A stretch of 64,000 nucleotides of DNA, taken from contig JBFXEV010000001.1 of NCBI GenBank assembly GCA_050179755.1, positions 809,994 through 873,993 of the forward strand, read 5' to 3'. A program made the position numbers and the translations under genes. Origin of the DNA: Candidatus Babeliales bacterium. GTDB taxonomy: Bacteria; Babelota; Babeliae; Babelales; JBFXEV01. This document shows, one piece after another, positions 7,420 to 38,722 of the stretch; the first letter of the stretch is position 1, and each line of letters starts with the position of its first letter. The notes below the pieces were generated by a model. It saw only the letters and a program-made list of their open reading frames with translations, ran no database searches and was not told the origin of the DNA.

Positions 7420-8538
7420 TTATGTATGGTCTGTTGCAGCGGGTGATGCTTTTGAGTTAGTCGCTGCAGCTATGTATGGTGATTTTTGGATAACTCGATT
7501 AATGCTTTGTATAATCTCTTGCCTCAATTGTGCTTCGTTGTATTGTGGTAAATATTTTTTTGCTAAAGCTAATTTTTCTTTTACAATCTCAGGAATTAAT
7601 TCAACAGCAATCCTATGGCCTATTTCGGCAGGTAGCGGCAATAAACCTTGTTCTCCCCGTGATTTGCTTGTTAAAGTTATTATTGCAGGGATTACGTGTT
7701 GAACTTCCTGGGGGGTGGCGGATGTAAGGAGTGCTTTTAAACTCATGAGAATGCTGTGCTTAAAGTGTGATTGCACACGCTGTGTATTATATTCATTTAA
7801 AGCTCTATTGAGTGGTGTGCTGCCTGATTTATCAGGGGTATTCATATCTGCACCAGCTTCAATAAGTGTTGCAACTGTTGCGGCACTGTCCTGTAGATAT
7901 AATGCTGCTTTATGTAAAGGCGTTTTTCCGGCATCATTTTTAGCATTTATAGGTAAACCTTTGCCAAGAAGCACTGTAATTGCATTTGGTCGCACATGGT
8001 GAGCTGCAAGATGTAACAATGTATTGCAGTCACGGGTTTTTACATGTACATTTGCACCAGCATCAAGCAGCATATCTAAGATAGTCTCATCACTGGCAAA
8101 TGTATTTAATTCTTTAATTAATGGCGTATGATCAAATCTATCTGTGGCTTCAAGGTCAGCATGTTCATCAATAAGCATTCTGACGGCCAGAGCTTTATCA
8201 GTGATGATTGCACTATGCAGTGCAGTTTTACCGGTACTGCATCTAGCATTTTTATTTGCACCAGCATCAAGCAGTACACGCATTGCCTTAGTAGAGCCAC
8301 GTAAAGCAGCTGCCATGAGCGGAGTTCCGTCCAAAAAACTATAGGCCTCTTTATTAGCTCCTGCATTAAGAAGGCGCTCAACTTCTTGTGCGTCATCTTG
8401 CTTTGCAGCTTTAAATAATTGTTTATCTAGTGGCGTTAGCGCTTGGTGCATGGCATTCGCTGTATTTATAACTTGCAACAAAAAAGCGATTACAAATAGT
8501 GAGAATATATTTTTTAGGGTATACATAAGGACTTTCAT
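7420..8538 (-). CDS. Secreted ankyrin-repeat protein with shared C-terminal domain (start possibly 8526)
   Basis: GTPLMAAA, GKTALHSA and GKTPLHKAA repeats; signal peptide ...NTANA-M; C-terminal PQEVQHVIPA...LPAEIGHRI. Confidence 0.9.
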   Translation of the reverse strand: MKVLMYTLKNIFSLFVIAFLLQVINTANAMHQALTPLDKQLFKAAKQDDAQEVERLLNAGANKEAYSFLDGTPLMAAALRGSTKAMRVLLDAGANKNARCSTGKTALHSAIITDKALAVRMLIDEHADLEATDRFDHTPLIKELNTFASDETILDMLLDAGANVHVKTRDCNTLLHLAAHHVRPNAITVLLGKGLPINAKNDAGKTPLHKAALYLQDSAATVATLIEAGADMNTPDKSGSTPLNRALNEYNTQRVQSHFKHSILMSLKALLTSATPQEVQHVIPAIITLTSKSRGEQGLLPLPAEIGHRIAVELIPEIVKEKLALAKKYLPQYNEAQLRQEIIQSINRVIQKSPYIAAATNSKASPAATDHT

Positions 8539-9573: not shown

Positions 9574-10389
9574 TTGGACCCTATGGAAAGTGTGTATCAT
9601 TACAAACCTATTCAATTTTTTCTAGCCGTGCTATCAATTAGCCTTAGTGCGGGATTTGCAGCAGCTTACGCAAGTTATCAGCAAGGCATGGCGTGGCTGC
9701 AATTGCTTGGTATGCTTATAATGTTGTGTACGCCATGTGGTGTGGCAATATACATGATTTATAGATCAAAAAATGCACATGTACGGCAGGATTTTTGGCG
9801 GCGATTACACATGCCAAAAATAACGGGCATGTCTTTGTTGATACTAGTTGCGCTCATGCCTGTTACGCTGTTTTTGGCAACGTCAATTTCTTTATTGTTT
9901 GGTTATTCAGCTAATCAATTTAATCTTTCACCGGAATTTGCAGGTGGGCCAGGGCAGATTGCAATAAGCTTACTGTTTGTTCTGGTTGTAGCATTGCTTG
10001 AAGAACTTGGTTGGCGCGGATATGGTGTGAATAGCCTCAGGTCACGGTATAATTTATTTACCTCGAGTATGTTATTTGCAGCTTTCTGGGGGTTATGGCA
10101 TGTGCCGCTCTTTTTTATCAAAGATTATTATCAATATAATCTATGGCAAGCGAGTAGTATCTATACGCTGAATTTCTTTGCCAGTTTGGTGCCGGCAACC
10201 ATCTTGATGAATTGGCTCTATTATAAAAATAATCGCAACATCATTATTTGTGTACTTTTTCATGCCATGCTTAATCTTAGTGCGATGCTTTTTCAAACTG
10301 AGCAGTTTACTAAATGCATTATGACTTTTCTCTTAATGCTAGTTTCGGTTGCCCTTGTTAACCGAGATAAAAAATTATTTTTTACTTAA
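9574..10389 (+). CDS. CPBP (CAAX/Abi-type) intramembrane metalloprotease (start may be ATG 9583)
   Basis: EELGWRG, WGLWHVP and HAMLN motifs; multi-TM. Confidence 0.9.
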   Translation: MDPMESVYHYKPIQFFLAVLSISLSAGFAAAYASYQQGMAWLQLLGMLIMLCTPCGVAIYMIYRSKNAHVRQDFWRRLHMPKITGMSLLILVALMPVTLFLATSISLLFGYSANQFNLSPEFAGGPGQIAISLLFVLVVALLEELGWRGYGVNSLRSRYNLFTSSMLFAAFWGLWHVPLFFIKDYYQYNLWQASSIYTLNFFASLVPATILMNWLYYKNNRNIIICVLFHAMLNLSAMLFQTEQFTKCIMTFLLMLVSVALVNRDKKLFFT

Positions 10390-11047: not shown

Positions 11048-11866
11048 ATGTTAAAGACGTATACATATAAACCATTATCATTCTTTTTAACCGCGTTTAC
11101 TATAAGTTGGGCGCTGTGGGCTTGTGCAATTTATGTAAGTTGGCAGCCAACAATGCAATCTCTTTTAATGCCATTAGTTCTTGGCGGTATTGCAGGCCCT
11201 GCACTAGCTTCATTATTCATCTTAATCAAATCACAGAATAAAGAATTGTGGCATGATTTTATTGAGCGGTTACGGCCGGGTAGGATTACAAAGAAGTTTA
11301 TTCCTGTTGTATTGTTCTTATTTCCGTGCCAAATAATACTTGCAATAGCAATATCTTTATTGTTTGGTCAATCGGCAGATCAATTTGGCCTGAGCACACA
11401 GTCTTCTGACCAAGTGTTGCAAGGAATCAATGCTTTGATGATTATAGTGGTGGTATTTCTTGTGGGTCCGCTTGAAGAGTTAGGTTGGCGCGGGTATGGT
11501 ATTGATAGCTTAAAAACAAAATTCAGTCTCTTTAAAGCGTCTTTACTTTTAGGCGTTATTTGGGGCGCTTGGCACGTGCCGCTCTTCTTGATAAAGAATG
11601 GTGCCTATCAAGAGATATGGAGTTTAGGTTTAGTGCATACGTCACTGTATTTTGTTGATTTAGTGCTGCTTACCATAATCAACAATTGGTTATATTATAA
11701 AAATAATCGAAGTATCTTAGTTGCAATTATGTTTCATAGTATTTTAGATATTTGCATGAGCATTTTTCATATAACGCCAGTTACCTGGATTATTCTTACG
11801 TTCATTTTACTCTTTACATCAATTATTATCATTAGGAAAGATAAAGAGCTATTTTTTAATAAATGA
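11048..11866 (+). CDS. CPBP intramembrane metalloprotease, paralog of 9574..10389
   Basis: EELGWRGYG, WHVP, NWLYYKNNRS and HSILD motifs. Confidence 0.9.
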   Translation: MLKTYTYKPLSFFLTAFTISWALWACAIYVSWQPTMQSLLMPLVLGGIAGPALASLFILIKSQNKELWHDFIERLRPGRITKKFIPVVLFLFPCQIILAIAISLLFGQSADQFGLSTQSSDQVLQGINALMIIVVVFLVGPLEELGWRGYGIDSLKTKFSLFKASLLLGVIWGAWHVPLFLIKNGAYQEIWSLGLVHTSLYFVDLVLLTIINNWLYYKNNRSILVAIMFHSILDICMSIFHITPVTWIILTFILLFTSIIIIRKDKELFFNK

Positions 11867-15973: not shown

Positions 15974-17116
15974 ATGAGCGTTTCTAAGCAAATTACCCTC
16001 GTTCTATCTCTGTTCTGTGTAACATTGCCTATTTGTGCTATGCATTCTGATATAGTAAATAAACAACAATTAGATAGGGAATTGCTTGCTGCAGTTAGGT
16101 CAGATTTTGCTGAAGAAGTAAGGGCGTTATTAGAGCGTGGTGCTGATATAGAATGTCGAGATGTACTGAGTGATTGTACCCCTTTGCACATTGCTGCTGA
16201 AAATGGGCATACAAAAACAGTTAAGGAACTTTTATCTAAAGGAGCTTATCTTGAAGCACTAGATGCGCAAGAGAGTGCGACGCCATTGCATAAAGCTGTG
16301 GCAAAAGGTCATATAGAAACAATTAGTGAGCTTTTAGCGGCAGGAGCAAGAACGGAAGCACGCGATATTCTTTTTAGGACGCCTTTGCAGCTAGCTGTTC
16401 TTGGCGATGATGCAGAATCAGTTACATTGCTTTTGTCGCATGGTGCGGATAAAGAAGCAAGGCAAGCGGGTGGTATAACTTCGTTGCATAGTGCTGTCCG
16501 TCGTAATCACAAAGGTGTGCTTAAAGCATTATTAGATGCAGGTGCAGATCGCGGCGCTAAAGATCAATTTCATAGGATACCGTTATGCTTTGCTCTTGAT
16601 TTTGAAGCATCAGGTGACGTAGAAACAATCAGAATGCTTTTGCATCATCCACAATGTTCTATAAAAGGTAGTAAGCAAGCTTCAAGAAAGAGAATATTTG
16701 CTGCGCTTTGCTGCTTTGCCAGAAATCTGGTTCCTCATGATGTTCAATTAAAGTTGTTGTCTTACATGCCTGAAGATACCCTCAATCAAGAACACGCACG
16801 GTTACTATTAAATTGTGAGACAAATATTGAAGAATTGGCAGCATATTGTCCATTGGAATGGTTTGTAGCAATGTATCAAGATAAAAAATATAAGGAAGAA
16901 TTTTTGGAGAAAATAGTTGCTGCTGTTGTTACGCATAGACTGAGCATTGTGAGACATATGGTTGCTGATGCGCAAGTTCAGCGGTTAGTTCAATCGCATA
17001 ATCCAATAGTGCGTGCGTTGCTTGATCCTCACAACGTTGAGCAGCATCGAGAAGCTATTGCAGCTAATGTGCGAACAGCATTTGTGCGTAAAGAAATGAA
17101 TGTGCATGGAAAATAA
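15974..17116 (+). CDS. Secreted ankyrin-repeat protein
   Basis: AGGAGG RBS; signal peptide; TPLHIAAENGH, TPLHKAV and TPLQLAV repeats. Confidence 0.9.
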   Translation: MSVSKQITLVLSLFCVTLPICAMHSDIVNKQQLDRELLAAVRSDFAEEVRALLERGADIECRDVLSDCTPLHIAAENGHTKTVKELLSKGAYLEALDAQESATPLHKAVAKGHIETISELLAAGARTEARDILFRTPLQLAVLGDDAESVTLLLSHGADKEARQAGGITSLHSAVRRNHKGVLKALLDAGADRGAKDQFHRIPLCFALDFEASGDVETIRMLLHHPQCSIKGSKQASRKRIFAALCCFARNLVPHDVQLKLLSYMPEDTLNQEHARLLLNCETNIEELAAYCPLEWFVAMYQDKKYKEEFLEKIVAAVVTHRLSIVRHMVADAQVQRLVQSHNPIVRALLDPHNVEQHREAIAANVRTAFVRKEMNVHGK

Positions 17117-18437
17117 AAAAAATAATTGGAAATTAATGACTAAGCTGAAAAAAATTGCCCTTGGTTTGTATACGGCATGTGCCGTTTCGTCTTTACAGTG
17201 TATGGATCTGAAAGAAGCATCAGGTTTTCAAGATGTGCCTACTCTGAATGAGCAACTAATAAAATATATTCTTAAGCATGCAAATCGCTATTCTGGTGCA
17301 GAGATTGCACGTCTGCCAAAAGAAGTAAGTACTTCTCTTTTGCATACATTTGCAACAAATATTTGGGGGGCAATAATGATCAAGCAATTTATTGTCTCTC
17401 AAAACCCACGAGATACTGTTGAGGCGCTTTGGCTAACCTCTTGCATGAAAGATATAAAACATAATAATAAAATTATCGTAGCCCATCGAAACCATACTCT
17501 TTCTATTTGGGATATGGAAGGAAATCAGCTTGGAGCTTGTGTTGGCCACAGAGAGACTGTTAGTTCAGTGTGTGTGACTCAAGATGGTATTATTATTTCA
17601 GGCGCTTGGGATGGAACAATTTGCTTATGGGATATGGAAGGTACTTGTATTGGCGAGTGTACTGGGCATACTGGCCCGGTAATGTCAGTGTGCGTATCTT
17701 GCGATAATAATATTATTTCGGGCTCTCTAGATAAAACTGTGCGTATCTGGAATATGAATGGGAATCTCCTTAAAACGTTGCGAGGACATAAAGCTGGCGT
17801 ACTGTCTGTTTCTTTATCGCAAGATAATAAAATTGTCTCAGGCTCAGAAGATAAAACGGTACGTATATGGAGTAACGACGGTGCTATGATTGCAAAATGT
17901 AAAGGCCATCTCTCGCGAGTCTTGGCTGTGTGCATGACCAATGATAATAAAATTGTTTCGAGTTCAGAAGATGGCCAAGTCCTATTATGGAATATAGAAG
18001 GTAATAGAATTGGTATATGTAAAGGTTTTTTGCATCGCAGGGGCTTTGGGCAGGCACCAGAATGGGTAAGTCATTGTGGCAAAGTTTTTGCGATTGCTGT
18101 AACAAAAGGTAATAAAATTATTACTGGTTCTCAAGACGATGGCATAAAGATATGGGATCCAGATGGAAATCATGTGGCAGCTATTCAAAGGGGCCATACA
18201 GATATCGTGAAAGCAGTTGCTGCTTTGCAAGATACAAAATTTGTTTCAGGATCTTTTGATGGTACGATCTGTATATGGGATATGGATCTTAATTGTTTGG
18301 ATAATATAGATCAGCTACAAGTGTGTGTCGCATGGCATTTTTTGAAAGATTTAACATATAAGTTAACATATAAAAAGATGGATTTAGAAGCTTGCTGGAA
18401 CCAGTTTAAAGCTATTGTTAATCCTATGATGTTTTAA
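17100..18437 (+). CDS. Secreted WD40-repeat protein (start likely MTKLKK near 17136)
   Basis: Repeated GH...V.SV....IISGS.D.T..IWD units; signal peptide ...SSLQC-MD. Confidence 0.92.
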   Translation: MCMENKKNNWKLMTKLKKIALGLYTACAVSSLQCMDLKEASGFQDVPTLNEQLIKYILKHANRYSGAEIARLPKEVSTSLLHTFATNIWGAIMIKQFIVSQNPRDTVEALWLTSCMKDIKHNNKIIVAHRNHTLSIWDMEGNQLGACVGHRETVSSVCVTQDGIIISGAWDGTICLWDMEGTCIGECTGHTGPVMSVCVSCDNNIISGSLDKTVRIWNMNGNLLKTLRGHKAGVLSVSLSQDNKIVSGSEDKTVRIWSNDGAMIAKCKGHLSRVLAVCMTNDNKIVSSSEDGQVLLWNIEGNRIGICKGFLHRRGFGQAPEWVSHCGKVFAIAVTKGNKIITGSQDDGIKIWDPDGNHVAAIQRGHTDIVKAVAALQDTKFVSGSFDGTICIWDMDLNCLDNIDQLQVCVAWHFLKDLTYKLTYKKMDLEACWNQFKAIVNPMMF

Positions 18438-18475
18438 TTAAAGAAGCTCTATACATGAATATAGAGCTTCTTTAA
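18438..18475. terminator. Hairpin terminator, copy of the one at 14882
   Basis: TTAAAGAAGCTCTATA / TATAGAGCTTCTTTAA. Confidence 0.7.
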
Positions 18476-19044: not shown

Positions 19045-20457
19045 ATGCATTCAATGCGTATACTTGGCATTTCTTTACTCATTTTAATTTTGGGCGGTGT
19101 AGTAGTAAATAAGGCAATGCGCCGGCAAGATTTAGGGGTAAGGCCTGGCCTACGACCTGAATTTACTGGAAAGCCAGGAATTAGGCCCAGTGTAACGCCG
19201 CAAGTGCAAGTTGCCCCAGCTGCCGATGATATAGTTTTGGTTGGGCTGAATGGAGCAAGTTTTAGATTGCCTCTGAGCGCAATGAGACATTCGGGAACAT
19301 TGCAAAGTGAATTTGCGGCTAGTGGCCAATCCTATTATAAGTTCTCAGAAATTAAGGGCGAAACTTTAGAAATTATCATTCATTTACTTATTCAGCTTGA
19401 TCAGTTAATGCAAAAAAAAGAGCATGAGACTGCAGGCATGGATGTTGCATACATACCACGTATATTTCAACGACGTGTTAATCCAATTCTAGAAAAAACA
19501 AGCAATCAAAGTCTTGCAGCGCTTTATAATGCAGCTGATTTTTTTGACATACCTTATATTTCAAATGCTGTTGCTTCGGTAATTGCCGATAGAATATACA
19601 AAGAAATACCTGAACCCAGACTTAGCTCAGAAACTCGCATATGGGATAAAAAAGCAGAAGAGCATAAGCAGATACAACAATTTATCATGCAAAAATTAAA
19701 AGAACATGGTTTTTTATTAATCAATTTAGATTACGTGATGAAGCATATCACCTTTAGAAGGTGCGGTATTATGGTAGAACAGAGCGTGGCAGATTATGTT
19801 TCTACATTTAACATGCCATTGGAACGCGGCATAGGCCCGATAAGCAAGATTGATTTAAGCAAAAAGAAAATTACAAGCTTGTTTGGCTTATCTTCTTTAA
19901 AGCGCAAAAACCAAGTTGAGGAATTAACTTTGGATGGGAATTGTTTCTATGATTTTTCTCTTGACGTTCAAGGAGAAAAGTATCCGTTTAAGGGCTATGA
20001 TGCATTGTTGAGACTTTCAATTTCTGATTGCCATTTGCGCAGTTTGCAGTCTGATATTTTTGAAGGGGCATCAAACATGCGTTATTTATTTTTAGATAGT
20101 AATCAATTTAAAGAACTTCCTCTTGAATTATTTAGACCGCTACCTAAGCTTCGTTATCTTAATCTTCAAGAGAATGAACTTGACTTATTGCACGTTGGTC
20201 AATTTAAGGGGCTAGATGTTTTGAATGATCTTCTTCTTAGATGGAATCGGATTGAATCGCTACCTATTGGCTTATTACATGGTTTAAAGCTGCAACGTCT
20301 TGATCTTTATGGTAATCCTTTAACTCGATTGGAAATTGATGCATTAACGGGAATGCCTGAATTAAAAGTTCTTTATTTGGACATTACTGGTCTTAGTCAT
20401 GACCAACGTGATCAGATAGCCAAACTATTGCCTGGTGTGCAGGTGATAAATTATTAG
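19045..20457 (+). CDS. Secreted Skp1/BTB-like domain plus leucine-rich-repeat protein
   Basis: Signal peptide; IVLVGLNGASFRL...SGTL and LYNAADFFDIP resemble Skp1; C-terminal LRRs (LRYLNLQENEL, LQRLDLYGNPL). Confidence 0.82.
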   Translation: MHSMRILGISLLILILGGVVVNKAMRRQDLGVRPGLRPEFTGKPGIRPSVTPQVQVAPAADDIVLVGLNGASFRLPLSAMRHSGTLQSEFAASGQSYYKFSEIKGETLEIIIHLLIQLDQLMQKKEHETAGMDVAYIPRIFQRRVNPILEKTSNQSLAALYNAADFFDIPYISNAVASVIADRIYKEIPEPRLSSETRIWDKKAEEHKQIQQFIMQKLKEHGFLLINLDYVMKHITFRRCGIMVEQSVADYVSTFNMPLERGIGPISKIDLSKKKITSLFGLSSLKRKNQVEELTLDGNCFYDFSLDVQGEKYPFKGYDALLRLSISDCHLRSLQSDIFEGASNMRYLFLDSNQFKELPLELFRPLPKLRYLNLQENELDLLHVGQFKGLDVLNDLLLRWNRIESLPIGLLHGLKLQRLDLYGNPLTRLEIDALTGMPELKVLYLDITGLSHDQRDQIAKLLPGVQVINY

Positions 20458-33372: not shown

Positions 33373-34281
33373 ATGAACAGACATTTTCTATATTATTTAT
33401 TTGTCGGGGTATTAATTGCTGGTAATTCCATGATTTACTCTATGGATCAGAGTGCCCATATTACAACTTTAAATGATGCAATTGTGAAAAAGGATAATCA
33501 ACAAGTGGCAAGACTGTTGGCCACAGGTATAAATCTTAAATCGCTACCAAAAAATGTAACTTCGCCTCTTTTTTTGGCAATCACCCAGAATTCACCAGAA
33601 ATAGTCGAGCTGCTGATTAAAGCTGGTATTGATGTGCGCGCCGATTTAGATCGTGTTTCTCCTGAGGAGTATGAAAAGAGATCTGATATTCAGATGTATG
33701 CTTCACCATTGCATTACGCAGTGAGTGAAGGGTATGTGGATATTGCAAGAGCCCTTATAGAAGCAGGTGCGGATATTCACGCGCCAATGAACTTGGTTTC
33801 AAAAGGTGAATATCAAGATGTATCAGAAAAGATTGGACAAAATTCTTTAGATATAGCAAAGAATTTTGCAAGTTCGCCGGCGAGTTCTCAATTGTTATTA
33901 AGGCACAATGAAGATGAACGTGTTGCACATTTAAGAGAAATTGCTAAGAAAAACTTGTTGGGTATGGATTTGTTACGCGTTTTATTAACTACCGTTTCAC
34001 CTCAAGAAATTCAGCATATAATACCAGCAGTTATTTCATTAACAATGCGCCAAACATTATTGGGTAAAGATGTGGGGAGATTAATTGTTGCTCAGCTTGT
34101 TCCTCAAATTGTACGTGCAAAACTTACTTTGGCAAAACAATATCCAGTAGCTGAATCAGAAGATCAGCTGCGTGTGGATATTATAACTAGTATTAATCGA
34201 GTGATTAAAAAGTCACCGCGTATTAAAGCTGCTATAAATAATCTTCAAGCCTGTTCTGCCGCAAAATCAGAAACCAACTAA
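33373..34281 (+). CDS. Secreted ankyrin protein with shared C-terminal domain
   Basis: SPLFLAI, SPLHYAVSEG; VSPQEIQHIIPA...LGKDVGRL. Confidence 0.87.
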   Translation: MNRHFLYYLFVGVLIAGNSMIYSMDQSAHITTLNDAIVKKDNQQVARLLATGINLKSLPKNVTSPLFLAITQNSPEIVELLIKAGIDVRADLDRVSPEEYEKRSDIQMYASPLHYAVSEGYVDIARALIEAGADIHAPMNLVSKGEYQDVSEKIGQNSLDIAKNFASSPASSQLLLRHNEDERVAHLREIAKKNLLGMDLLRVLLTTVSPQEIQHIIPAVISLTMRQTLLGKDVGRLIVAQLVPQIVRAKLTLAKQYPVAESEDQLRVDIITSINRVIKKSPRIKAAINNLQACSAAKSETN

Positions 34282-34570: not shown

Positions 34571-36193
34571 ATGAATCGTCGCATATTAATAATTTTAATT
34601 TCTTGTTTGCAACTTAGCATGCTTAGTGCTGATTATTCAGGATTAAATAAGCAGCTTTTTGAAGCGGTGACAAAAAATGATGTTGTGGAAGTTCAACGAT
34701 TAGTAGAGTTGGGCGCTGACGTTAATGCAAAAGATGAGTTTACTTCTACACCGTTACATATCGCTGTATCTAAGAACAATTTTCCATTAGTTGCATTTTT
34801 GCTTGAGAAAGGCGCAAATGTCAATGCGAAAATAAAAGATGATTTAACAACTCCGTTGCATGCTGCTGCAATTAATGGTTTTGCGGACATAGCTCGATTA
34901 CTTATTAAAGAAGGTGCACATGTTAATCTAAGAGATAAGGATGATAAAACGTCGTTGTGGTTTGGAACTTTTGAAGATCATAAAGATGTTGTTGCAGTGT
35001 TACTCGAAAATAAAGCAGACATGTATGCAGAAAATAAAGAAGGCAATACACCGTTTCTGGCAGCCCTTGCTCATAGTGAGAGTATTCTACCATTATTTAT
35101 TGCTGCCGGCGTGGATGTTAATAGGAGTCTGCATTTTCTCGACCAGGAATTAACACCACTACAATTAGCAGGCATTTGGGGTGATGCACATGCTATTTCA
35201 TTACTCACAAGAGCCGGTGGTGATGTTAATGCCAAAAATAAAAATTCAGGAGCAACTGCATTACATAATGCTGCTTGGCTCGGTCATATAAATGCTGTTA
35301 AAGAGCTTCTTAAGTTGGGCGCACATGTTGATATTCGAGATAATGAAGATGCTAATCCTTTGCATCGCGCTGTACAAGAAGGAAAACTAGATGTTGCTTA
35401 TGCCTTAATTGACAATGGGGCTGATTTGTTTACTAAAAATAAAAATGGGGTTGCACCAATAGAGCGTGCAGCCGATGACGAAGCAAAAATAGCTTTAATA
35501 GCTCATACTCCTATACAAGAAATTACACATATAATTCCGGGCATTTTAGCATTAAAAAAAGCAACACCAGAATTACCTAAAGATATGCGCAACTCTTTGC
35601 TTCTTGAAATGATTAATGGCTTGGTAAGTGCAAAAATAAAGAAAGCAAAAGAGTATTTGCCTCAGCAAACAGTGGACACACTGAAAGTCGCATTTGAAAA
35701 AGGCATTAGCAATTCTATTAAAAAGTCACCAAGAATGCAAAAGGCTCCGCCAAGCGCGGATGTATTGCCGCCATATATTGCGGTTGCTAGCGATGCAAAA
35801 CCAGCATTTACAGGGCCATTGCCGCCTTCGCCCTATGAACAACCTGCACCAACTACCAGCATTACGGCATTAGAACGTCAACAATTGCTAGCGGTTCTCA
35901 AGGATTTAAACTTAGAAGAGGAAAGTGAGATTGGTACACAAGAAGTTACGCCTGCGGCTTTTCTAAAAGATCTTAAACTTGCAATGCGAGATATTCTTAA
36001 GGGTTTTAACATGCAAACACGTAAATATATAGGATATGCAGGTAGACATGAACCTTTTCATAATCGTTTTTTAAGAGACTATGAGGCTGCATTAAAGTTA
36101 TTAAAAGCTGCAAGCCCACATGATGGAGAAATTAGTCTATTTGAAGAGTGGCAACCGTATCTTGAACAGGCGGTTGATCAATATCCACAATAG
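34571..36193 (+). CDS. Secreted ankyrin-repeat protein with shared post-ankyrin domain, Pro-rich linker and second shared C-terminal domain
   Basis: About 8 ankyrin repeats (TPLHIAV, TPLHAAA, TALHNAA); PIQEITHIIPG...LPKDMRNSL; tail homologous to 29962..30477. Confidence 0.9.
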   Translation: MNRRILIILISCLQLSMLSADYSGLNKQLFEAVTKNDVVEVQRLVELGADVNAKDEFTSTPLHIAVSKNNFPLVAFLLEKGANVNAKIKDDLTTPLHAAAINGFADIARLLIKEGAHVNLRDKDDKTSLWFGTFEDHKDVVAVLLENKADMYAENKEGNTPFLAALAHSESILPLFIAAGVDVNRSLHFLDQELTPLQLAGIWGDAHAISLLTRAGGDVNAKNKNSGATALHNAAWLGHINAVKELLKLGAHVDIRDNEDANPLHRAVQEGKLDVAYALIDNGADLFTKNKNGVAPIERAADDEAKIALIAHTPIQEITHIIPGILALKKATPELPKDMRNSLLLEMINGLVSAKIKKAKEYLPQQTVDTLKVAFEKGISNSIKKSPRMQKAPPSADVLPPYIAVASDAKPAFTGPLPPSPYEQPAPTTSITALERQQLLAVLKDLNLEEESEIGTQEVTPAAFLKDLKLAMRDILKGFNMQTRKYIGYAGRHEPFHNRFLRDYEAALKLLKAASPHDGEISLFEEWQPYLEQAVDQYPQ

Positions 36194-36973: not shown

Positions 36974-38722
36974 TTATTGATGTTTTTCAACGAGCGGTTC
37001 TTGTGGTAAAAATGGTTGCTGTGCGCGTAATCTAATTTGTAAATTATCAAGCCGTTGCTCAAGATGATTAAGAGCAGCAGGTAACGGTAAGCGTTCTTCT
37101 CGCGGCATTGCGGCCGGCTGTTGCTGTTGCAACGCTGCTTGGCGTTGTGCTTCTTGTTCGCGTGCGCGTTGCAAGTCTTCTTGTTGCTTACGCAATGCTT
37201 CTAATCGTTTTGCTTGATCTGCTTTTAATCGCTTATCTTCTTCTTGTCTACGTGCCTTTTCTTCTTTGCGGCGTAATTGGTCTTGTTGTTTGCGCAATGC
37301 TTCAAGGCGTTTTGTCTCTTCTTCTAATCTGCGAGCTTCTTCTTTGAGACGTAATGCTTCTTGCTGCTGCAATTCTTTTGCCTTAAGGCGTTCAGCTTTT
37401 ATTCTTTGTATTTCTTGCTTATACAATTGAGCTCGATCTTGTTGCGTTTTTGTATCTGTTGCCAGTAATAGATCAGTTAAGTGATTTTTTGCCCAATCGA
37501 TAGCATTTCTTTTTAAGTTGTCTTGTAAATCCACATTGGCGCCAATTTCAAGCAACAATTGAACTAATGTAATTAAATCAAAGGTGGTTGCAAATATGAG
37601 TGCGGTTTGGCCACTTTTGTTTTGTTTGTCTACGTTAATACCATGCTCAATAAGAATTCGTGCTATTTTAAGCAGGGCTTCTTGGTCTTTATGTTTTGGA
37701 TATGCTTTGATTGCGATAATTAACGTGTTATTATCTTCTTTATCAAGACTTTCAAGATTAGCGCCTTTATCAAGTAATAATTTTACTGCGTTTGCTTGTC
37801 CAGACTGTGCTGCCAAATGCAATGGCGTTTGCCCGGTTTTATCTTTACTTTCAATTTGAGCACCATGTTCTAAAAGAAAATTAATTATTTCAATGTGGCC
37901 ATTTCTTGCTGCATGATGTAATGCTGTTAAACCATTAATATCTCTGCTATTAATGAATACGGTAGATTTCGGCATTTTTTCAAGTACTTCTTTATTACCA
38001 GCAGCAGCAGCGGCTATAAAGTCTTTAGCTGCAGTTAAAAGATCTCTAATTATTTTATTTTTTTCAGGATCAGCCAAATCTACTGCTTGTTGTTTAAACA
38101 TATTTATTAATTCAATATTAGCTCCTGCATTGAGCAATAATTTAACCACCGATTCTAGATGTGTTGCCGTTGCAAGCATAAGCGCAGTTTGCCTATTATT
38201 ATTTTGCATATCTATGTCAGCGCCTTGTTGAATGAGCATGCGTACCAGTGCTTCAATAATGGGTGATGTTTCTTTAGTGGCTTGAGCGGTAGCTTGCGCA
38301 CGAGCAGCGGCTTTTTCTTCTGCAGTAGCGGTGTCTGGATTTGGTATTATTTTTTTGTAGTGTTCATCTGCTAATTCTGCTTGTTTTCTGGAAAATGATC
38401 GCACTGCTGCAATTAAAGGAGTTTCATTTTGTTTATCAGTAATTGAGGCGTTGGCTCCTTTTTCTAATAAAAAGGCAACGATATTAGTATCTGCTGCGCT
38501 TGCGGCTCTATGTAATGCTGTTTGACCCCCCGGTCCTTTAACATTAACATCAATACCAGAGTTAAGTAACTTTTGCAAAATATCTATTTTGCCTCTGGTC
38601 GCAGCATCAATGAAATTTTGAATTTTTAATTCTTCTGCTGTGGGTGGCTTTATTTGAACTGTTACATCTTGAGCATTACTGACAGAGACGCATATAATAC
38701 ATGCAAGAATTTTTTTTATCAT
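36974..38722 (-). CDS. Secreted ankyrin-repeat protein with C-terminal charged coiled coil
   Basis: GQTALHRAA, GLTALHHAA and GQTPLHLAA repeats; E/K/R/Q-rich tail. Confidence 0.9.
   Translation of the reverse strand: MIKKILACIICVSVSNAQDVTVQIKPPTAEELKIQNFIDAATRGKIDILQKLLNSGIDVNVKGPGGQTALHRAASAADTNIVAFLLEKGANASITDKQNETPLIAAVRSFSRKQAELADEHYKKIIPNPDTATAEEKAAARAQATAQATKETSPIIEALVRMLIQQGADIDMQNNNRQTALMLATATHLESVVKLLLNAGANIELINMFKQQAVDLADPEKNKIIRDLLTAAKDFIAAAAAGNKEVLEKMPKSTVFINSRDINGLTALHHAARNGHIEIINFLLEHGAQIESKDKTGQTPLHLAAQSGQANAVKLLLDKGANLESLDKEDNNTLIIAIKAYPKHKDQEALLKIARILIEHGINVDKQNKSGQTALIFATTFDLITLVQLLLEIGANVDLQDNLKRNAIDWAKNHLTDLLLATDTKTQQDRAQLYKQEIQRIKAERLKAKELQQQEALRLKEEARRLEEETKRLEALRKQQDQLRRKEEKARRQEEDKRLKADQAKRLEALRKQQEDLQRAREQEAQRQAALQQQQPAAMPREERLPLPAALNHLEQRLDNLQIRLRAQQPFLPQEPLVEKHQ

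Follow-up and report, generated by a model that had tools for sequence, protein, structure and literature searches.

A predicted exported protein of a Babeliales bacterium joins a Skp1-homologous domain to leucine-rich repeats

Skp1, the adaptor of the Skp1-Cul1-F-box (SCF, or cullin-RING ligase 1, CRL1) ubiquitin ligases, works as a free protein some 160 amino acids long, and WD40 and leucine-rich repeat (LRR) modules are receptor classes of the eukaryotic F-box proteins. The Skp1 homologues encoded by viruses (chlorovirus A039L and those of giant viruses) have likewise been described as free adaptors serving separate receptors. The known bacterial mimics of cullin ligases are on the receptor side (F-box, BTB-box), alongside U-box and RING proteins; the GALA proteins of Ralstonia, for example, are reportedly F-box-LRR effectors. 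In the available sections of a 2026 review, the entry 'CRL adaptors' holds F-box proteins only (PMC13720258). The BTB proteins of the Cul3 ligases unite both functions in one polypeptide, and their interface is structurally analogous to that of Skp1 with Cul1 (PMC4403949, in the part available). Here we describe a gene of a Candidatus Babeliales bacterium (phylum Dependentiae) whose product carries a domain homologous to Skp1 itself, fused to LRRs and preceded by a predicted export signal. It lies at positions 19045..20457 of a window of 64,000 nucleotides (i.e. the whole stretch of DNA analysed, contig JBFXEV010000001.1 of assembly GCA_050179755.1). The bacterium has a small genome and is probably a parasite of protists.

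Our literature search found no description of a bacterial Skp1-derived effector. Two Dependentiae genome papers, in the parts available, name WD40, F-box, LRR and RING proteins and deubiquitinases; apart from one occurrence in the title of a reference, a Skp1 domain is not named in these parts, and the supplements could list some.

The Skp1-homologous domain and its fusion to LRRs

A preliminary description of this DNA had proposed a secreted Skp1-like domain fused to LRRs. The open reading frame (ORF) and its boundaries were exactly as given there, and the peptides quoted were present in the 470-residue product, in which IVLVGLNGASFRLPLSAMRHSGTL occupies residues 63-86, FSEIKGETLEIIIH residues 100-113 and NQSLAALYNAADFFDIPYISNAVASVIADRI residues 154-184. 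The protein starts with a signal for export, or an anchor, and continues with a spacer rich in Pro and Gly, the Skp1-like domain and the LRRs. In the lines below, pLDDT is the per-residue confidence of the structural model.

19045..20457, plus strand: the whole gene, an intact ORF of 470 codons and a stop (ORF list)
19045..19116, plus strand: residues 1-24, predicted Sec-type signal peptide or N-terminal membrane anchor (hydropathy, and a junction common to the relatives)
19117..19221, plus strand: residues 25-59, Pro/Gly/Arg-rich spacer, probably disordered (sequence, low pLDDT)
19222..19704, plus strand: residues 60-220, Skp1-homologous domain, a POZ fold with equivalents of helices H5-H7 (profile, structure alignment)
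Within this domain, residues 62-99: three strands and helix alpha2 (model and alignment)
Within this domain, residues 105-220: equivalents of Skp1 helices H3-H7, including the H5 motif (model and alignment)
19705..19944, plus strand: residues 221-300, connector helix 229-239, second helix 248-255 and the first LRR strands (family consensus, model)
19945..20454, plus strand: residues 301-470, LRR solenoid (Pfam, phmmer, model, Foldseek)

When the protein alone was compared with Pfam, neither Skp1 nor BTB was matched, with the whole protein at E<=1 or with residues 55-300 at E<=10. The genome-wide scan with Skp1_POZ (PF03931) listed 8 places, and the gene was not among them. A word-index protein search with residues 55-300 returned the query itself as the sole match (1 among 1453 candidates). 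The likeness to Skp1 was visible only through the relatives of the protein. Searching 1.84 billion representatives exhaustively with phmmer gave 48 proteins at E<=0.001 including the query, i.e. 47 relatives, and 27 were at <=1e-10. We scanned 45 of these relatives with Pfam; the other two are fragments of 71 and 100 amino acids. Skp1_POZ was above the Pfam cut-off in 27 of the 45 and below it in 5 more, while LRR_8 passed in 36; the C-terminal domain of Skp1 (PF01466) and BTB (PF00651) were found in none of them. The Pfam comparison suggested in the preliminary description was therefore negative for the protein itself and positive for most of its relatives.

We then relied on a profile (A2) built from the N-terminal domain of the protein and seven family members that are free or nearly free of LRRs, which was searched against all solved structures. 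Skp1 was matched at E 6.6e-16, and the 33 best rows were all Skp1, from human, plants, yeast and Dictyostelium. Elongin C came much lower (7.9e-5), and the first BTB domain, that of PLZF, was at 0.39.

LRR matches dominated when model and profile were used at full length, and the N-domain was modelled and searched separately. In Foldseek, Skp1 chains ranked first (E 1.4e-4 and up, probability 1.00), with Elongin C and the BTB-Kelch protein KBTBD2 (ranks 6-7) below them; the template modelling (TM) score by query was 0.21-0.24 for KBTBD2 against 0.33-0.40 for the Skp1 chains. The VIA alignment of the model with Skp1 gave Z scores of 12-13.9 and a root-mean-square deviation (rmsd) of 1.6-5.3 over 102-138 aligned residues, as in the entry 9kll_B (Z 13.9, rmsd 3.5, 136 residues). 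It spanned model residues 6/7-166 and Skp1 residues 2-141, and Skp1 was found in all 50 entries listed. The ESM Atlas model of the protein also matched Skp1 clusters (TM 0.77 by row). We identify residues ~60-220 as a divergent homologue of eukaryotic Skp1, as the preliminary description had supposed from the sequence, and not as a BTB domain. The helix H5 motif, one of the peptides matched in that description, is common to POZ folds generally and is not specific for Skp1; the assignment was made from the strand-helix motif at the N-terminus and from the profile search.

What is lacking is the last part of Skp1. PF01466 was absent from the protein and from the genome at E<=0.1, and the structural alignment stops at Skp1 residue 141. 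The C-terminal extension of Skp1, of ~35 residues, folds round the F-box helices (PMC5282575, in the part available). This F-box-clasping part has no counterpart in the protein.

The LRRs, also predicted in the preliminary description, were recognised directly. LRR_8 scored 79.3 bits (cut-off 27) at E 1.7e-22, LRR_14 was matched at residues 315-462, and LRR_4 and LRR_1 were matched too; against LRR proteins in the PDB, E values as low as 1.3e-27 were obtained with phmmer. From residue 268 onwards the chain forms some nine to ten LRR strands, one every ~24 residues, and ends in a capping helix. They are regular in the model (pLDDT 90-98), and Foldseek also matches LRR proteins.

Between the two halves lies the best-conserved stretch of the family, residues 229-255, which forms two short helices. 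The consensus of the connector reads YI.KH...R..GI..E.SIADYI...GQP ... K.LTSLFG, and residues E245, D250, T277 and G281 of this region are near-invariant. Family profile positions 219-388 could be aligned to the capped designed LRR proteins 4r6g, 4r5c and 4r5d. Since this alignment to capped LRR proteins begins from about residue 250, there is little space for an F-box-like module between the halves. AlphaFold2 with the family alignment gave a pLDDT of 92.7 and a predicted TM score (pTM) of 0.91 for residues 55-470, and 90.3 and 0.89 for residues 55-300; the first block of the models, residues 55-64, had the lowest N-terminal confidence (pLDDT 72-77). The pTM of 0.91 indicates that the Skp1-like domain and the LRRs are coupled as one rigid body in the predicted structure.

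The N-terminus consists of MHSMR, a hydrophobic core of 16 residues and an Ala-Met junction. The best Kyte-Doolittle mean over 10 residues was 3.22, from residue 12. A hydrophobic stretch begins within the first 21 residues in 40 of the 48 family members, and most relatives have ...A|ME at the corresponding junction.

Relatives in the genome and across the order

In the genome of the bacterium itself, the family profile matched eight places: the gene described here and seven genes that encode a signal peptide, Skp1_POZ and WD40 repeats. All seven were above the Pfam cut-off for Skp1_POZ. Five of them, with near-identical N-termini, lie in tandem on the minus strand at C1:403832-412712 (locus L037), and the other two lie at C1:682573-685905 (locus L010). 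The WD40 repeats were identified with Pfam in two of the seven and read from the translations in the others.

Several of these seven proteins were also seen to have a hydrophobic C-terminal tail. A weaker ninth candidate at C1:1097791-1099242 (L049:592-2043, minus strand) has a signal peptide, Skp1_POZ at 19.1 bits and LRR_8 at 29.9 bits; its long hydrophobic C-terminal region suggests membrane anchoring.

We also examined the genome for other parts of cullin ligases. The F-box families PF00646 and PF12937 had no match in the protein and 0 matches in the genome. The preliminary description had set the protein apart from F-box mimicry, and this contrast held; an F-box reading was rejected on the same counts. 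Searches of the genome for cullins and for Rbx1-type RING proteins found none, and the BTB (PF00651) search gave no match in this genome but none anywhere, controls included. As cullin, BTB and Rbx1 were not found in the genome, any ligase would have to be that of the host.

Across the order, 41 of 261 genomes, belonging to 27 of 145 genera, had Skp1_POZ above the cut-off, and none of 14 control genomes had it; the phylum-level set consists of the same 261 genomes, which are those covered by these counts. With copies per genome reaching 12-13, the family is big enough for comparative and structural study. A local hidden Markov model search of 20 fetched regions and the earlier loci yielded 57 ORFs, some of them counted twice, and 35 were taken to Pfam after dropping duplicates and further tandem copies. 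Among these 35 we found WD40 repeats in 27, ankyrin repeats in 1 and no recognised C-terminal domain in 7. The ankyrin case (L024:585-4403, minus strand, genome G165) is a protein of 1273 amino acids with an N-terminal Skp1_POZ and C-terminal ankyrin repeats, and the ~900 residues between them match no Pfam family. Some relatives have two or three Skp1-like domains in tandem (L004 and L023 of genome G016; P0017 and P0046), which precede a WD40 propeller or no recognised C-terminal domain; P0046 has 3 Skp1-like stretches (108 bits) and L023:4284-6959 has several.

The LRR type is near full length in two genomes, with 1 copy in the genome described here and 9 copies in G200. A weaker near-full match was found in G248, and partial matches in G234, G256 and G191. 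Seven of the G200 copies stand in tandem (L044, G200:C1:556700-566700), with near-identical signal peptides, differing numbers of LRRs and lengths of 373-647 amino acids. P0002, the best relative of the protein, belongs to this array. When related loci were searched with the protein itself, 0 of 70 pattern matches were confirmed. With P0002 the search gave 5 loci, of which two lie outside the order and match in the LRR part only; the ORFs of one of these two (L017) had no Skp1-like match.

The gene is at C1:829038-830450 of a single-contig genome of 1,525,295 bases that is 96% complete; genomes of the order span 0.5-2.1 Mb, and both this range and a gene content rich in signal peptides agree with a placement in Babeliales. 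Bacterial genes flank it (BamA, CysS, a type II secretion system F protein and methyltransferases), together with many ankyrin and WD40 genes that have signal-like sequences. Two features lie immediately upstream:

17100..18437, plus strand: gene for a signal peptide and WD40 repeats, an N-terminally shortened Skp1_POZ-WD40 paralogue (BLASTP, Pfam WD40)
18438..18475, plus strand: terminator-like hairpin of 16 perfect pairs with a 6-base loop, followed by a T run, directly 3' of the stop of the WD40 gene

The product of the WD40 neighbour showed 39% identity to the paralogue L037:5776-7413 over 385 residues (BLASTP, E 7e-82). The alignment begins at residue 127 of the paralogue, and the neighbour, after its signal peptide, begins at the equivalent of Skp1 helix H5. 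The terminator scan of the region gave 3 sites against 1.5 expected, the hairpin having by far the longest stem; judged from the DNA, it may part the WD40 gene from the transcription unit of the gene described here. The promoter scan was uninformative (8 sites against 9.9 expected).

Other genes were noted in the window. Five ankyrin-repeat genes lie at 15974-17116, 7420-8538, 33373-34281, 34571-36193 and 36974-38722, the first of which opens with a signal-like hydrophobic stretch. Two paralogous membrane proteins of the Rce1-like CAAX-protease family are encoded at 9574-10389 and 11048-11866 (plus strand), ~660 bases apart, and an ORF of 208 amino acids sits between them.

A possible action on host cullin ligases, and its alternatives

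The majority of the family retains three motifs of Skp1: the S.T.K..(I/L)ED.G helix, the IPLPN(I/V) strand and AANYLD in H5. The Asn-Tyr pair of H5 we take to be part of the cullin/Sgt1-facing surface of Skp1. The Sgt1-binding face of Skp1 is made up of helix alpha2 and strand beta3, and Cul1 shares this surface with Sgt1 (PMC5282575, in the part available).

These features suggest the following model. Inside the host cell, the Skp1-derived half would take the site that normally receives the POZ domain of Skp1; the prime candidate partner would be the N-terminus of Cul1, and the second the tetratricopeptide repeat (TPR) domain of Sgt1. The short conserved connector would join this half rigidly to the capped LRR solenoid, which would hold a host protein. 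The protein so held could be ubiquitinated by the host Cul1-Rbx1, or at least be withdrawn from its usual partners. Adaptor and receptor would in this way be placed in one chain, i.e. the logic of BTB-Cul3 built from Skp1, with the F-box bypassed. The recurrence of the Skp1-like domain with WD40 and ankyrin modules is what such a one-chain adaptor and receptor would predict.

We therefore put forward, tentatively, that the protein is an exported one-chain Skp1-derived adaptor and LRR receptor acting on a Cul1-type site of the host, a proposal which we consider a good possibility though somewhat short of probable. Of the one-chain adaptor and receptor in the preliminary description, the architecture was borne out, with LRRs following the Skp1-like domain in one chain and a predicted signal for export in front; docking on a host cullin would belong to the model above, as would delivery to the host cytosol and ubiquitination. 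A wider proposal, which we hold slightly more loosely, is that Dependentiae have a class of single-chain SCF-like receptors, in which eukaryote-derived Skp1 without its tail, fused to WD40, LRR or ankyrin modules and exported by Sec, would be placed onto the host Cul1-Rbx1 without an F-box and would turn it towards chosen proteins of the host. In Chromulinavorax, the only relative studied in depth, signal peptides are present on 44% of the coding sequences and 78% of the ankyrin proteins, and these were read as secreted, host-manipulating proteins (PMC6561590, in the part available).

Several observations weigh against the proposed action on Cul1. The motifs of the protein itself are substituted: AASG stands for ED.G (alpha2 reads S.T.Q..AASG where the family has S.T.K..ED.G), YKFSEI for IPLPNI and AADFFD for AANYLD. 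The Q is found where the family column has K in 18 of 40, the A where it has D in 25 of 40, and E89 sits in a hydrophobic column. Both Pro columns of IPLPNI (P in 24 of 41 and in 20 of 36) are replaced, and AADFFD is a minority state (D in 10 of 45, F in 11 of 45). The same substitutions are present in all nine G200 copies, with YKFSEI or ISFAEI and AADF(F/L)D. Some members (P0036, P0040, P0047 and L048) begin at the helical half and have no strand-helix subdomain, the part that would face the cullin, and the same is true of the WD40 neighbour at 17100-18437. A contrast of constant handle and variable receptor was looked for in the nine G200 paralogues and not seen, the mean identity over their 36 pairs being 64.5% in the Skp1-like part, 74.0% in the connector and 67.5% in the LRRs. 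The genome G001, of the same genus, has 12-13 WD40-type family genes and no orthologue of the protein, its match being confined to the LRR part (33%). Finally, an Arg-Arg lies right behind the predicted junction, so that the N-terminus may be an anchor in place of a cleaved signal. The preliminary description had looked both to a POZ/Skp1 fold and to a cullin-binding surface; the fold is predicted, and the residues of alpha2, beta3 and H5 are substituted in the protein. It is an atypical member, and the finding holds at the level of the family. As read from these substitutions, the LRR subfamily may have shifted to a different cullin or partner.

The substitutions suit another explanation, in which the Skp1-derived domain binds no cullin and is a repurposed scaffold, i.e. 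a cap, an interaction or an oligomerisation module of an exported LRR protein with a ligand in the host or the envelope. The alpha2, beta3 and H5 motifs that Skp1 and the rest of the family have in common are no longer present in the protein and in the nine relatives closest to it, and the members that lack the N-terminal subdomain, the WD40 neighbour included, still have the connector and the repeats along with the helical half. The connector, with its near-invariant columns, is also the best conserved part of the G200 copies. However, the surface motifs of Skp1 are retained by most of the family as well as by all seven WD40 paralogues, which is difficult to account for unless a partner is conserved, and the substituted positions of the subfamily are themselves conserved, which suggests a changed partner and not decay. 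We regard such a scaffold as unlikely, yet deserving of serious weight. A decoy or inhibitor, with the Skp1-like half blocking the assembly of host Cul1 SCF or the Sgt1-Hsp90 pathway, or with the LRR target merely sequestered, seems to us a little less probable again. It would have the same structural evidence as the one-chain adaptor. In the available parts of the sources, Cul1 and Sgt1 compete for one Skp1 surface (PMC5282575), and the F-box effector LicA binds Skp1 and forms no active ligase (PMC13720258). A blocker, however, would not need varied WD40, LRR and ankyrin modules in expanding tandem arrays, which are the pattern of substrate receptors, and the predicted rigid coupling of the two halves suits the positioning of a substrate.

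Two further explanations bear on what the domain is. POZ folds are common to BTB, Skp1 and Elongin C, and chlamydiae have BTB-box/LRR families (PMC4209131, in the part available), so that a BTB-type Cul3 adaptor like those of the Parachlamydiaceae could be considered. An ESM Atlas feature search ranked a eukaryotic BTB+LRR_8 cluster first, with a score of 0.89 (under the bar of 0.9), and Foldseek listed KBTBD2. We consider this very improbable: the profile search favours Skp1 over the PLZF BTB domain by ~15 orders of magnitude, KBTBD2 has the lower TM scores, all the VIA rows are Skp1, and PF00651 was absent from the protein and from the relatives scanned (the genome search being empty, controls included). 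An artefact, i.e. mis-binned DNA of a eukaryotic host or a non-coding ORF, might be thought of as the domain is otherwise eukaryotic. The gene, with a bacterial-type signal, is inside one 1.525-Mb contig among bacterial genes, and there are 47 relatives of like architecture, 9 copies in another genome of the order and a confidently predicted fold, which leave this a negligible chance.

Comparison with known systems

If the proposed action on host Cul1 is true, copies of the Skp1 adaptor fused to receptors would be a further solution for hijacking cullin-RING ligases. Ubiquitin research would gain natural Cul1 adaptors of minimal size, and also a handle on host control by an almost unstudied phylum. 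Judged from the sequences, the Skp1-derived, receptor-fused family would be a fresh form of ubiquitin-ligase mimicry by intracellular parasites.

Among the known systems, the closest in sequence is Skp1 itself (PF03931 with PF01466). The N-domain is homologous to it in sequence and fold, and the family keeps the alpha2, beta3 and H5 motifs. Unlike Skp1, the protein has an export signal and fused LRRs and is without the F-box-binding C-terminal domain; the Pfam model does not recognise it, and substitutions are found at its putative cullin/Sgt1-facing residues. With the viral Skp1 proteins it has in common a parasite of protists with a diverged Skp1 of its own, and it differs from them in its fused receptor and in the absence of the F-box-binding part.

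The BTB adaptors of Cul3 (BTB-Kelch, BTB-MATH) resemble the protein in having a POZ-fold cullin handle and a receptor in one polypeptide, a match of architecture only. Their POZ domain differs from that of the protein, which comes from Skp1; no BACK or 3-box was detected in it, and its partner, if any, would more likely be Cul1. The bacterial F-box effectors (AnkB, LegU1 and LicA of Legionella, VirF of Agrobacterium) hijack host cullin-RING ligases by means of a bacterial substrate receptor (PMC13720258, in the part available), which is the aim that we propose here. They need host Skp1 as a bridge, whereas the protein has no F-box and brings a Skp1-derived domain of its own.

The Parachlamydiaceae provide a parallel among bacteria in way of life, being obligate intracellular in protists. 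In the available part of Domman et al. 2014 (PMC4209131), their F-box/BTB-box families with LRR or TPR repeats likewise have eukaryote-derived ligase modules fused to LRRs, and both these families and the one described here show tandem, lineage-specific expansions. The two differ in the means of export: a heterologous assay gave type III secretion signals for the Parachlamydiaceae proteins, and the present family has predicted Sec-type signals. They also belong to different phyla and have drawn on different sides of the ligase: the Parachlamydiaceae modules are those of the receptor side (F-box and BTB-box), while the family of the Babeliales bacterium copies the adaptor, Skp1.

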